Assembly: GCA_964016885.1 (NCBI GenBank)
Contig: OZ024750.1
Coordinates: 11,594,001 to 11,658,000 of the forward strand
Length of the DNA: 64,000 nt
Origin: Eledone cirrhosa
Taxonomy: Eukaryota
Direction of reading: 5' to 3'
Of this stretch, positions 23,341 to 61,712 are shown in pieces (positions within the stretch are counted from its first letter, which is position 1; the number at the start of each line of letters is the position of its first letter). The position numbers were made by a program, and so were the translations under genes. The notes under the pieces were generated by a model. That model was not told the origin of the DNA. It searched no databases and worked only from the letters and a program-made list of their open reading frames with translations.

Positions 23341-23858
23341 TTAAAATGATCAGGTGGTATTTAAGAGAGAGATTTGCCTGCTATTTCTAGCAGGTTAAGT
23401 GAGTGTATAGAGGCCCCTTCATTAGGAAAAATACACCCAGTCCACCCTGTTAAGTGGTCATTTCAGTGCCACAATAAAAAGCACCCAGTCCACACTGTAA
23501 TGTGATTGGCGTTAGGAAGGGCATTCAGCTATAGAAACCAAGCCCAAAATACAGAACCATATGAACTAGGCATGGACTTTGGACCTGAATTATCTCATAA
23601 TGTGACAACCTGTCTCCCCTATGAGAAATGAGCTGAAATTAACGCATGCAAGATTTCACAGCTCTATCATCACTCCTTCATAGTGAGCCTATGAACTTTT
23701 CAGTCGACCCTCGTAAGTAAAGTGCATACCCCTCACACACATATACACAATACACAACCGTGTGTGTATATGTATGTATGTATGCATGTATGTGTGTATA
23801 TATGTATGTGTGTGTGTGTGATCATATGGAAACAATTTAACTATAAGTACAATATATT

Positions 23859-24484
23859 ATACGATGGTTGCTAAGCACTGTACAGCTTAATTCGGGATGT
23901 TTGTTTACAAACAAACCGGGCATTATAATAAATGTTCAGTAAATCCATACGTACATATATATATGTGTGCATGTATGTATATATATATATACATACTACT
24001 GTGCGTCTGTATTCATATATGTATGTATGTATGTACGTATACATACTTATATTTAAGTAACAGCCGTACTAAGAGTGAAAAATGAAATTTCGTTTCATTT
24101 TTTCCATTTATCGTTTTCGGTGCGCCCGGCCAATTAACTCACTCGATATGCAAATTAGGCTGCTCAGCCGTTAATATGCATATGGAAAGTATATACTTTC
24201 AGACGTTCAATCATCTGGCAGGAAGGTATACGGTGCTGACGATAGCTAATAAGCTTGAAACTAGTACATCGTTCCTTTGTCAGTGTTGAACAAAAGGGCA
24301 ACGATGGTTGCTAAACACTGTACGGCTTAATTCGGGATGTTTGTTTATATACAAACCGAGCATTATAATAAATGTTCGGTAAATCCATACGTACATATAT
24401 ATATGTGTGCATGTATGTATATATATACATACTACTGTGCGTCTGTATACATATATGTATGTATGTACGTATACATACTTATAT
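23859..24484 (+). mobile_element. Non-coding retroelement with hammerhead ribozyme, terminal direct repeats and 11-bp TSD (retrozyme/Penelope-like)
   Basis: tacaatatatt flanks both sides (23848-23858 and 24485-24495). Direct repeats at 23861-24052 and 24301-24484 (period 440). Hammerhead at 24231-24271. Confidence 0.75.
24231..24271 (+). ncRNA. Minimal type-I hammerhead ribozyme
   Basis: cggtg CTGACGA t-agct-aata-agct-t GAAA CTAG TA catcg. Stem I is cggtg/catcg, stem II is agct/agct, stem III is the palindromic ACTAGT, and the GUA cleavage triplet is at 24264-24266. Confidence 0.75.
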
Positions 24485-24816
24485 TACAATATATTCTTCT
24501 AATTAAAATCTTAGTAATTAAAGTTTTCTTTGTTTCAACATTCCAAGTTACTATAATTAGATGGAAATAATAGAATCTACATTATGTTGTAATATTGTTT
24601 TGTTTTTTTTGTTTTTTGTCATTTATTGTTTTTGTTCTTATTTATTTATTAATTTATTTATTTATTCATCAGATCAAATTTCTACAACTTATATGTTACC
24701 AAGACTAAAAACAAAAATTCAGTCTGTGTTGTTTTAGCTTTTAATGCTAAGATTTTCTTCTTTTAATTTAGGTTGTTGTTGTTATTATTATTATTATTAT
24801 TACTATTATAAGGGCG

Positions 24817-25032
24817 TTGGATTGGCAGTATCGGAAGAGGGTCGGACACCATGCTTTGCAGCAGAGTTACGCCCCTTTGCAGTCTGAGTTCAAATCCCGC
24901 CGAGGTTAACTTTGCCTTTCATCCTTACGGGATCGATGAAATAAGCCACCAGTAATGTACTGGGGTCGATTTAATCGACTTTCCCCTCCCCTTTAAAAAA
25001 TTGCTGGCTTTGTGCCTAAAGTAGAAACAATT
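24817..25032 (+). mobile_element. SINE family A (long variant)
   Basis: Family A sequence within (TTA)n. Further copies at ~28742-28925, 30080-30290, 33355-33475 and 62845-62997 (+). Confidence 0.85.
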
Positions 25033-45845: not shown

Positions 45846-46915
45846 CACTGTAAAGTGATAGTGTAGGTGTCATGACAGAATGTGCCCAGTCCACACTGTA
45901 AAGTGATAGTGTTGGTGTCACAATAAAATGTGCCTAGTCCACACTGTAAAGTGATAGTGTAGGTGTCATGACAGAATGTGCCCAGTCCACACTGTAAAGT
46001 GATAGTGTTGGTGTCACAATAAAATGTGCCTAGTCCACACTGTAAAGTGATAGTGTAGGTGTCATGACAGAATGTGCCCAGTCCACACTGTAAAGTGATA
46101 GTGTTGGTGTCACAATAAAATGTGCCTAGTCCACACTGTAAAGTGATAGTGTAGGTGTCATGACAGAATGTGCCCAGTCCACACTGTAAAGTGATAGTGT
46201 TAGTGTCACAATAAAATGTGCCTAGTCCACACTGTAAAGTGGTTGTGTAGGTGTCATGACAGAATGTGCCCAGTCCACACTGTAAAGTGATAGTGTTAGT
46301 GTCACAATAAAATGTGCCCAGTCCACACTGTAAAGTGGTCATGTAGGTGTCATGACAAAATGTGCCCAGTCCACACTGTAAAGTTGTCGTGTAGGTGTCA
46401 TGACAAAATGTGCCCAGTCCGCAATGTAAAGTGGTCGTGTAGGTGTCATGACAAAATGTGCCCAGTCCACACTGTAAAGTGGTCGTGTAGGTATCATGAC
46501 AGAATGTGCCCAGTCCACACTGTAAAGTGGTCATGTAGGTGTCATGACAAAATGTGCCCAGTCCACACTGTAAAGTGGTCATGTAGGTGTCATGACAAAA
46601 TGTGCCCAGTCCACACTGTAAAGTTGTCGTGTAGGTGTCATGACAAAATGTGCCCAGTCCACACTGTAAAGTTGTCGTGTAGGTGTCATGACAAAATGTG
46701 CCCAGTCCACACTGTAAAGTTGTCGTGTAGGTGTCATGACAAAATGTGTCCAGTCCACACTGTAAAGTTGTCGTGTAGGTGTCATGACAAAATGTGCCCA
46801 GTCCACAATGTAAAGTGGTCATGTAGGTGTCATGACAAAATGTGCCCAGTCCACACTGTAAAGTGGTCATGTAGGTGTCATGACAAAATGTGCCCAGTCC
46901 ACACTGACAAGTGAT
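45846..46915. repeat. 45-bp minisatellite (~24 units) derived from a SINE internal unit
   Basis: Unit cccagtccacactgtaaagtggtcgtgtaggtgtcatgacaaaatgtg runs directly into a SINE tail at ~46915-47130. Confidence 0.9.
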
Positions 46916-47469
46916 AGTATTGGTGTCACGTCAAAAAGCATCCTGTTCACACTGTGAAGTAGTTGGCATTAGGAAAGGTATCCAGCCATAGAAACTAAGC
47001 CAAAATCAGTTTTATGTGAGAGAAACACGGTCCTCCGAGTTGATCTCTCACAAAGGGATAACCCATCCTACCCATGCTATCATGGAAAATGGACGTTAAA
47101 CGATGACGATGATGACGACGATGATGATGATATATATATATATAAATAAATAAAAGTCTGTCATAATAAATTCTGAGTTTCTATTCTGATGACATTTTCA
47201 GCTTCTAAATTATTCTTCCTGTTTCTTGATTTTCTGACAGATCCGTATTTAATTTAGGTTAAATATTTATTATCTCCCTTGATTGTTTCCTCACTTAGCC
47301 ACTTGCAACCAGCTATTGTTGTTGTTATTGTTGTTGTTAGTTATTTTATTACACTTTCCCTCTATTTTGTATTTTGTATTTTCTAAAATAAACTCCCAAT
47401 GGTTTGCTTTGATGCTCTTTCCCTTTCTCTTTCTCATTCTTTTATTTTCTTTGTTCTTTGTGTTAGGAT

Positions 47470-51606: not shown

Positions 51607-52297
51607 CACCTATATCCCAAACCAAACCAAGAAGCTTCAGGGGTGAATTCCAAGAGTCAACAAAATATTGATGTCTTCTTTCCACCATGCCAGTGCTGTA
51701 TCTAGAATTGTAAGCTTATGAAACAATTATAGAATGCTGTCTTCAGTTATAACATTTACCCCAATTAGATAAAAACATAATAAATTTGATGGCCACCTCC
51801 TCTGTATGTTATAACCACACCTACTATTATATCATTAATTACCAACCAATCACAGTATATTATTATCTCATTAAGCCAGCCAATCAGAACACAATAGCTA
51901 CTCGTTAAAATAATGTACTATATGTTTACACCCTTCTCAAGTTATTAGAGAACATTCAGACATTATGTGAAGACAAACTTACATATTTCACCCCATATCA
52001 GGGTTGTGATTAGTAACCCCTGAACTTGCCAGAAACTGACCCTTGGTTCAACTTTACTAAGCTGTTGTTTCTTTTTAAAGGGTTTATATTTAACTAAAAA
52101 CCTGTTATCGTAATTCTGTGTTAGAACCTTTAAGTTATGCTCCAAAAATCAGATAATCTTTATTACAGATAATTAATTAAAAATATCTCTAAATCTCTTC
52201 ACATAATTGATTATTTTCAAAATTATTTGAAAATTAGCTTGTTTTCATTAGAAATATTGTAATGAATGGGTTGACATCATTCTATAGCCTGTTTATG

Positions 52298-59973: not shown

Positions 59974-60734
59974 TTATTTTATTGTTGTTGTTGTTATTGC
60001 AAACGAAAGTATTCATCTTACTCGTCAACACATTGTCGTTGTCATTATTATTTCGCGAATTATTCTTAATCTCCGGCAGCTGACCCCACAAAGCCTTATG
60101 TAGAGAAAGGTCAAAAGCTTCTATTTTTCAACTATTTCTAGGGTGTTCCACAAATAACTTCACCATTCCTCAAATTTAACTGACATGTTGTTGTTTTCTT
60201 GGAATCTAAATATTTCTGTGTGTGTGTGTCACCATATGAGTGTATGTGTATATATATATATGAACATGTGTGTGTTTGTGTATATATATGAACACGTGTG
60301 TTTGTGTATGTATGCCTATGAACATATGAGTATGTTTGTGTATATATATATATATATATATATATGAACACGTGTGTTTATGTATGTATATCTATGAACA
60401 TATAAGTATGTTTGTGTATATATATGAACATATAAGTGTGTTTGTGTATATATATGAACATATGTGTGTTTGTGTATGTATATATATATAATATATATAT
60501 ATAACTTTTTTTAGTTTAATTATTTTTATATTAAAATATATTTTTGCTTAATTATTTTTATATTATTTACCTTTTCTTTCTTTTACAGATATTCCCCTGC
60601 CGTTGGGTTTATCCTCCTCATTGAAAAATTAAATTTTCTTATGCCTAGGCCGGCCTTCGTTCATGTTTTCTTCACATCATAATTATTCTTATATTCAGAG
60701 CCACATCAACTATCAGTGTTGACCTGCACTAACA

Positions 60735-61676
60735 ATGAGGTCCCTATTAATTCTATGGGGTTGTTTTACCCTTGTCACAAGCTCATTGACTTGGCTCCGC
60801 TCTTTTAAGTCTGGACATGGAAAACTCACCAAAATTGCGATAAATTCTCAAACCAATGATGTCTATGTTGGTGGTATGAATGCAATTTACCATTTAGATT
60901 CTGAGCTGAAGGAAAAACAGTATCTAAATATTAAAACAACAACATTTACCAACAACATTGTAACTGTTTTAGAAATTGAACCAAATTTAGAATATCTTCT
61001 TTCTTGTGGAACAATAAGACAAGGAGTCTGTGAAATTCACGGATTGAAAAATATCACTAATAAAACATCCACTTTTGATAACAAAGTTGAAAGTTTGATT
61101 GGAAGCCGAAAATCAGTTGTTGCTTTTTTTGGAAGATCTCGTACTGCCATTCCTTACTTATATGTTGCTATGGCATATGATGGCCGTACAACTAATAAAT
61201 ATCCATATGCAATATCTGAACGTAAAATTCAGAAAAGTAATTCCTTTTATAAGATTTCTTACAGAGAAAACTTTGATTATATTACTGCTAATACCAGCTA
61301 TTCAACTGAATTTGTCTATGGTTTCGAGTATAACAACTTTATCTTCTATGTTTCGGTAAGATTTGGTAATTCAACATTCCTTCTTCGTGTTTGTGAAGCT
61401 GAAGGCAGTTACTATTACATTGAAATGAAGATTAACTGTTGGGTTGATGAACACGCACTTCATTACAGTACTGCTGCGCGCTTTACCTATCTTAATGGGA
61501 AACCAACATTGATAGTGAGCTTCTGGAAGGAACACAAGACATCAGCTATTTGTCATTATAACATGGAGGAAATAAAAAGAAGAATGAAGCGTCAAATAAA
61601 AGAATGTAGTAGCCATACAAATGGTTTTCAAAAAGCATCTCGTTGGGTTGTTACTGACAAAGAATGTACAGAAGTG
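60735..61676 (+). CDS. Plexin-like receptor, first coding exon (signal peptide plus most of the Sema domain)
   Basis: Non-repetitive 314-codon frame with a hydrophobic N-terminus (MRSLLILWGCFTLVTSS). It has Sema-type motifs VYVGGMNAIYHL, YLLSCGTIRQGVC, FVYGFEYNNFIFYV, LLRVC..EGSYYYIEMKINC and SAICHYNMEEI. Acceptor ttttacAG at 60587-60588 (exon starts 60589, 5'UTR) and phase-0 donor GTATGT at 61677. Confidence 0.85.
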
Positions 61677-61712
61677 GTATGTTAACATCTTTCCTCCATA
61701 TATATGTTTTAA

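Follow-up and report, generated by a model that had tools for sequence, protein, structure and literature searches.

A high-copy, ORF-less tandem element of Eledone cirrhosa with a predicted type I hammerhead: a copy with one 5′-truncated arm, likely inserted by a Penelope-like element in trans

Introduction

The closest described counterparts of the element reported here are the metazoan non-LTR retrozymes, for which Cervera and de la Pena (2020; PMC7229834) give units of 350–390 nt and ~5,000 ribozymes in Mytilus, and demonstrated circular RNAs by northern blot in mussel, coral, and axolotl. The non-LTR retrozymes of Xenopus are described as non-autonomous derivatives of Penelope-like elements (PLEs) in a preprint whose accessible portion includes no mollusc (Li, Clavereau, Pollet; bioRxiv 10.64898/2026.07.22.740005); at least two complete ribozymes in tandem serve there as the criterion of activity, and eight of nine retrozyme dimers stayed uncleaved in vitro. 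PLE integration itself has recognizable hallmarks: partial tandems, an inverted truncated arm or pseudo-LTR (pLTR), a tail at one end, and a bias toward (TA)n targets (PMC8557442; PMC3846280). With purified Poseidon, a PLE of the anole, the tail proved to be the interval between two internal reverse transcriptase (RT) start sites, and both strands are nicked and extended; a dimer is predicted, and ribozyme cleavage is dispensable for insertion (PMC11167929). Among hammerheads, helix proportions of the 6/4/2 type are those of canonical type I, whose monomers cleave poorly and whose dimers are active, and the minimal hammerhead of PLE type, known from Schistosoma, has a helix II of 7–8 bp, a helix I of 4–5 bp, and a poorly defined loop 1 (PMC4209133). 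For cephalopods, the giant squid genome paper reports 235 hammerhead-1 matches, in its accessible part as a count only (PMC6962438). Our search of the literature, with repeat databases outside its scope, returned no paper on a cephalopod retrozyme, and the family may be catalogued as an unnamed repeat.

By the criteria that sequence can address, the element described here is a metazoan non-LTR retrozyme with a predicted ribozyme. On the accessible portions of the papers cited, it resembles the retrozymes of PMC7229834 in its short, ORF-less, AT-rich tandem units with one type I hammerhead each, its target site duplication (TSD) of more than 4 bp, and the coexistence of autonomous PLEs; unlike them it contains an internal microsatellite and has a unit of 420–440 nt, above the 170–400 nt of that study and within the 51–972 nt reported by Li, Clavereau, and Pollet (10.64898/2026.07.22.740005). 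As in Xenopus, monomers, dimers, and multimers are dispersed and dependence on PLEs is proposed, although the Xenopus evidence is co-occurrence and pLTR homology (24 of 57 families), with no mapping of ends in the accessible text, whereas here we find no homologous pLTR in the nine PLE families sampled and ends that match PLE behaviour. With the EN+ PLEs themselves (PMC8557442; PMC3846280; PMC11167929) the element shares partial tandems, a head-to-head inverted 5′-truncated arm, a tail at one end, a pair of internal RT starts, a target that is AT-rich or (TA)n, and a hammerhead; unlike them it has no ORF, and its tail measures 56–70 nt rather than 30–40 nt. Non-autonomous Chlamys elements such as MRC1 are likewise ORF-less PLE dependants with pLTRs and head-to-tail multicopy insertions, but at the 3′ end they are similar to their autonomous partner and, in the part of that account available, most Chlamys have no canonical hammerhead (PMC8557442). 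The LTR retrozymes of plants, which have type III hammerheads in LTRs and a 4-bp TSD, differ from our type I element, its 11-bp TSD, and its circularly permuted repeats.

The window analysed is a 64,000-nt stretch of E. cirrhosa DNA. We interpret the insert that it contains as a copy with a single, 5′-truncated arm, likely inserted in trans by the RT and endonuclease of a PLE and belonging to a high-copy tandem element that has no ORF and carries a predicted type I hammerhead, and we put the probability of this reading at about 80%.

Results

The insert is flanked by the 11-bp direct repeat that the original prediction described (Table 1). An 11-mer common to two random 16-nt junction windows was met in 37 of 182,723 trials in this window with tandem arrays masked (1,206 of 102,442 without minisatellite masking), and because such sharing is rare after masking we take the TSD to be real; two non-matching bases (AT) separate its left copy from the element. 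Realignment agreed with the internal repeat proposed from inspection (~1.4 units, about 7 substitutions, two indels): 23861–24052 and 24301–24484 differ by 7 substitutions and two 4-nt gaps (8 nt in total) at a spacing of 440, and the 625-nt insert therefore comprises 1.42 units. The predicted 440-nt monomer holds as the length of this copy and not as that of the family, since neighbouring cores in arrays are mostly 420–433 nt apart. Similarly, the 5′ boundary, placed ~35 nt past the cleavage site, does lie 34 nt past it in this copy, yet this is no family feature; 5′ ends in the main family are scattered, none of 115 arms begins at the cleavage site (q404–410), and the boundary seen here is a random truncation, set by chance. 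No ORF of at least 120 codons overlaps the insert, and local GC is 0.34–0.35. No bridging piece of an empty site was found at the locus among the best-supported joints, in contigs of four of five runs, and the assembly holds no second full copy of the insert's right flank; related sequence is present at low depth in contigs of organisms B and C.

Table 1. Features of the insert and its flanks, in window positions (unit coordinate q = window position minus 23860)
Feature	Position	Strand	Remarks
Left TSD, 11 bp	23848..23858	+	TACAATATATT
One full unit, 440 nt (q1–q440)	23861..24300	+	start = random 5′ truncation point
TA/TG microsatellite, internal, self-complementary	23946..24055	+	accounts for most variation in unit length
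Site A, first fixed 3′ end (putative RT start; read through in first unit)	24050..24055	+	40/115 arms end here
Predicted hairpin between sites A and B	24077..24104	+	retained by each of the three families
Site B, second fixed 3′ end	24104..24117 (mostly 24111)	+	46/115 arms end here
ATGCAAAT octamer	24148..24155	+	identical in all three families
Palindrome with TATATA (24190–24195), ~40 nt 5′ of ribozyme core	24185..24200	+	candidate TATA box
Type I hammerhead, predicted cleavage after A24266	24230..24272	+	motif scan, fold, covariation
Partial second unit (q1–q192)	24301..24484	+	terminates at site A = 3′ end of insertion
Right TSD	24485..24495	+	TACAATATATT again

The element is multicopy, as had been supposed. 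An exact 31-nt ribozyme core matched the genome 10,573 times (a reversed-pattern control, 0 times), which at 55 cores per 40 loci corresponds to at least ~7,700 loci, and copies are dispersed over many chromosomes. The unique part of the unit gave 1,209 first-look candidates, 40 of which were scored and are 95–100% identical. Our main-family sample of 69 loci consists of the 30 most like the window copy, minus one duplicate, and 40 in order along one chromosome; it contains at least four subfamilies, and segments lie a median of 3.8% from the column majority. A diverged subfamily with units of ~480–510 nt and an AACA loop II forms a 3–4-unit array at L073:7200-9000; contigs of organism A often show the same loop variant.

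Two sister families, both colinear with the main unit, were reached via side hits. The older (L121–L150; hits 89–93% identical to the query) has stem II GGGU/ACCC and stem III ACAUGU. In at least seven of its loci a SINE-like sequence, which we take to be of tRNA type, occupies the same (ATT)n stretch within the unit, although its 5′ junctions differ. The other family is very young: its ~465-nt units (463–470), with 1,633 exact ribozyme cores and a G-C-closed stem II, form inverted arrays whose arms reach 17 units (loci L171–L190 and L221–L240, e.g., G000:C1:117901200-117911199), and private divergence is ~0.4% per unit. Possibly it is still moving. Young and main units are 62% identical over their full length (score 199 against a shuffled maximum of −17), with sites A and B at homologous positions.

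A motif scan of the window refound the complete hammerhead of the original prediction, first placed at 24231–24271, as the one convincing match; the other is a weak AT-rich match at 52227. Stem I is formed by 24230–24235 and 24267–24272, CUGACGA occupies 24236–24242 and GAAA 24257–24260, stem II (AGCU/AGCU, loop AAUA) stands on a U.U mismatch, stem III is the palindrome ACUAGU, and a longer predicted stem (24205–24291) bears the ribozyme at its tip. The label "minimal" does not suit this structure, which with helices of 6/4/2 bp and a palindromic loop III has the canonical type I proportions given in the accessible part of PMC4209133; its helix I of 6 bp plus a predicted extension, helix II of 4 bp, and helix III of 2 bp depart from the minimal PLE type. 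No Rfam hammerhead model matched the ribozyme. Rfam miRNA matches were discarded as microsatellite-driven artefacts, all below the gathering score.

In an alignment of 10 units, hand-picked as representatives of three families and, being related, recording few independent events, the core is conserved except for N7 and one G8 change, as expected from the original prediction. Stem I is 100% paired, with four of six pairs changed on both sides; three pairs of stem II are changed on both sides; stem III remains a palindrome in all three families (ACUAGU or ACAUGU); and paired cells amount to 93%, versus 24–43% for slid partners. The covariation of stems I and II is a handful of events of the kind that a functional ribozyme fold would predict. 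Within the main family, the pair q373:q409 is G.U in 48, U.G in 38, and A-U in 16 of 111 cases, which represents three subfamily states and not 102 events. Core conservation among our own loci is not counted as evidence, because 40 of them were chosen by an exact core match; in unselected contigs, core-region variants fall only at N7 and in loop II among the 40 of 59 rows listed.

The base of stem II is U.U in the main family, A.A in the older sister, and G-C in the young one, and U.U is also seen in ribozymes of autonomous PLEs of the same genome. Together with the 2-nt loop III, the U.U mismatch predicts weak activity of the monomer, and in a circular monomer the predicted pairing of stem I is only 0.1–0.4. 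A hairpin at 24267–24306 that might block stem I after cutting was rejected (predicted probability <0.01 in the circle). Having a single hammerhead, the window copy cannot release a monomer; of the 40 family loci sampled in genome order, 8 carry at least two complete ribozymes in tandem.

Upstream of the ribozyme, the hairpins noted earlier at 24146–24183 and at the TATATA palindrome both appear in the predicted fold. The ATGCAAAT octamer, a putative promoter element, and a TATA-like box precede the ribozyme in all three families, an arrangement that suggests an internal promoter. A transcription start could account for a weak cluster of 5′ ends at q349–380, a signal confounded by structure-induced stops and by our having selected loci through the ribozyme core. 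In the young family, 7 of 74 5′ ends fall at r47–53, beside a hairpin.

Of 115 arms at the 69 loci, 86 terminate at A (q190–199) or B (q244–257), ~56 nt apart, and the remaining 29 elsewhere; among the 40 loci taken in genome order the figure is 49 of 68 arms, and the two homologous sites of the young family terminate 63 of its 74 arms. The stretch from A to B is a Penelope-type tail, and the predicted hairpin between them may be a protein-binding signal. Partial tandems with an inverted 5′-truncated arm, the Penelope arrangement, are present in the family, as is the preference for AT-rich or (TA)n targets, (AT)3+ following 65 of the 86 A/B ends. Most junctions lie in (AT)n and their TSDs are unreadable; clear ones were found in two arms only, here (11 bp) and at L003 (9 bp), both longer than 4 bp as in non-LTR retrozymes. 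Head-to-head pairs with both 3′ ends outward are frequent and nearly always join one A end to one B end. When only pairs with both ends at A or B are counted, the combination A+B accounts for 18 of 21 in the main family (p = 7e-4; the exceptions are two BB and one AA) and for 26 of 26 in the young family (p = 1.5e-8), where half of the loci were chosen for having arrays, a choice that affects the frequency of inversion and not which ends pair. Two fixed internal 3′ ends, one per arm, are the diagnostic feature that the original prediction lacked.

Main-family arms continue circularly from q440 to q1, for up to 4.4 units. The original proposal of target-primed reverse transcription from a template spanning unit junctions is supported, as is that of a non-autonomous, ORF-less, hammerhead-bearing retroelement of the non-LTR retrozyme or Penelope type. 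Local DNA-level duplication clearly happens within arrays, and one might therefore see the family as a satellite or a rolling-circle (Helitron-like) repeat spread at the DNA level, its ribozyme motif incidental. Fixed 3′ and ragged 5′ ends, inverted arms, the 11-bp TSD, dispersal over many chromosomes, and ribozyme covariation point instead to an RNA intermediate; the DNA-level reading is largely refuted, and we find it scarcely credible.

The genome contains at least nine PLE families, several with intact RT and GIY-YIG frames, sampled as ~50 stretches out of 10,597 GIY-YIG candidates; no N-terminal-endonuclease (Naiad) copy is among them. The unit shares no non-microsatellite sequence with the nine families (the best stray match has E = 0.035 over 21 nt), nor, in this small part of the candidates, does it resemble an autonomous partner's pLTR or 3′ end. 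The element also lacks the single RT plus GIY-YIG ORF of an autonomous PLE, and the suggested linkage to such an ORF did not materialize: tblastn with seven PLE ORFs matched four of 100 loci, the fragments being parts of neighbouring PLEs where inspected (L030, L107, and L094, each neighbour with its own ribozymes and ends). A further 30 loci were screened by tblastn only.

These searches bear on the idea that the unit is a solo pLTR of an unseen autonomous PLE, left by 5′ truncation. Promoter-like motifs, ribozyme, and tail do follow one another as in the pLTRs of the genome's autonomous PLEs, and Xenopus retrozymes derive from pLTRs (10.64898/2026.07.22.740005, in the portion available). Yet arms run circularly through several units (17 in the young family), the ORF matches belong to neighbours, and no common upstream sequence was seen by eye at the 5′ ends. 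We regard a solo pLTR as very improbable, although ancient pLTR ancestry of the unit is possible.

A control PLE-like family behaves as the retrozyme does. It has open frames of 753–758 codons with YRDD and GIY-YIG-like motifs (Pfam GIY-YIG at E = 0.019 only; blastp matches to the ORFs of other PLEs at E 1e-6 to 5e-3), two ends ~65 nt apart, and the A+B combination at seven of eight pair-yielding loci among 42 examined. Frames of this length mark an abundant PLE-like family at L281, L298, and L233 whose own hammerhead has a 4-bp stem III. At L233 a young retrozyme arm is fused behind the end of another PLE and the two are duplicated together, which is suggestive and does not identify the driver. 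Several autonomous PLE families at L061–L080 each carry a different pLTR hammerhead variant, with UUGA and CUGA among the cores, and CCAAT- and TATA-like boxes precede these ribozymes.

Discussion

The class to which this element belongs, that of the non-LTR retrozymes, here probably moved by a PLE, is known, and so, qualitatively, is the one-ended tail. What our analysis adds is that on a retrozyme with no ORF the tail takes a near-strict A+B form, which a young family makes it possible to test; PMC8557442, PMC3846280, and PMC11167929, in their available portions, call the tail optional or often one-ended, and our literature search did not find the A+B rule. The finding bears on which enzyme moves animal retrozymes: in the accessible part of PMC7229834 PLEs are a strong candidate driver only, whereas here the PLE insertion signature is counted directly, on the retrozyme itself. 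The rule of one A plus one B is also a clue to the origin of head-to-head structures in PLE insertion, testable in an existing in vitro system, and it fits an asymmetric dimer that primes two strands better than the antisense-template self-priming discussed in PMC3846280 (on the portion available). The young family offers near-pristine substrates for activity tests and possibly polymorphic insertions.

We suggest the following cycle. Tandem arrays would be transcribed, probably from the octamer/TATA stretch just 5′ of the ribozyme. The A–B hairpin would be bound by a PLE protein, probably acting as a dimer, that nicks AT-rich DNA; cDNA would then start within the RNA, with one strand primed at A and the other at B, and the RT would copy back over unit junctions until it falls off, leaving partial tandems and inverted pairs. 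The window copy would be one arm, primed at A and stopped after 1.42 units. Probably the hammerhead cuts multimers to unit-length RNAs, acting as a dimer through the palindromic stem III, and these RNAs may circularize, so that arrays are regrown and the promoter lost by linear copying is restored. With an internal promoter, linear copying would lose ~1 unit per generation, and arrays must therefore regrow; possible routes are rolling-circle copying, with a monomer that has been cut and ligated as template, jumps between templates, and duplication at the DNA level. That circles take part in the cycle we rate at about even odds. An ambitious version, unlikely as it stands, would have asymmetric PLE dimers prime two nicked strands at two sites flanking one RNA hairpin, and would make these retrozymes self-cut circles of 420–465 nt that carry promoter and signal, a minimal and still-active cargo that a single event lays down as inverted arrays with as many as 17 units per arm.

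PLEs could also drive a cycle that has neither cut monomers nor circles, in which a few master arrays supply uncut linear multimers as template, DNA duplication restores the arrays, and the ribozyme only trims transcripts or is a passenger. The lack of 5′ ends at the cleavage site (none of the 115 main arms, and none of 74 young arms within 2 nt) would fit such a cycle, although a ligated circle predicts the same. In two young arrays (L228, L234) the two terminal units have position-matched variants in common that the inner units lack, and three others (L171, L223, L224) show higher-order periods of 5, 6, and 4 units; these patterns imply multimeric templates or DNA-level duplication and argue against a monomer circle as sole template, the periodicity reflecting multimeric circular templates or early unequal crossing-over. 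Neighbouring units are identical in L095 and L106 and near-identical in L023, and ribozyme mutants of the anole PLE still insert, unprocessed RNA being the main substrate (PMC11167929, accessible part). Against linear masters, subfamily variants are common to all units and both arms at most loci (exceptions L014, L029, L109), and young arrays, long as they are, bear array-wide variants. Seven locus-private substitutions at five loci occur in every covering unit, against 18 in subsets and 143 singletons, a count that sets aside L222, a divergent subfamily with 16 more. The ribozyme fold, moreover, is conserved between families only 62% alike. Distances within loci (3.0–5.4%) are only slightly lower than those between loci of the same subfamily (4.0–6.0%), and this small gap therefore does not separate circle from linear master. 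We consider linear masters a serious alternative that falls somewhat short of an even chance; insertion by a PLE is common to both.

At ~7,700 loci or more, the family makes up a sizeable share of this octopod's repeat landscape. Abundant SINE-like repeat copies lie beside the element (24812–25030 and 23430–23560), and a 48-nt minisatellite of 22.7 copies at 45846–46936 resembles part of one such repeat. Farther along, 60723–61685 (+), where the window has its one clear coding exon, is a large exon of an HGF-receptor/plexin-like (Sema domain) gene, best matched by HGF-receptor-like proteins of Argonauta hians and Octopus vulgaris at 57–60% identity.
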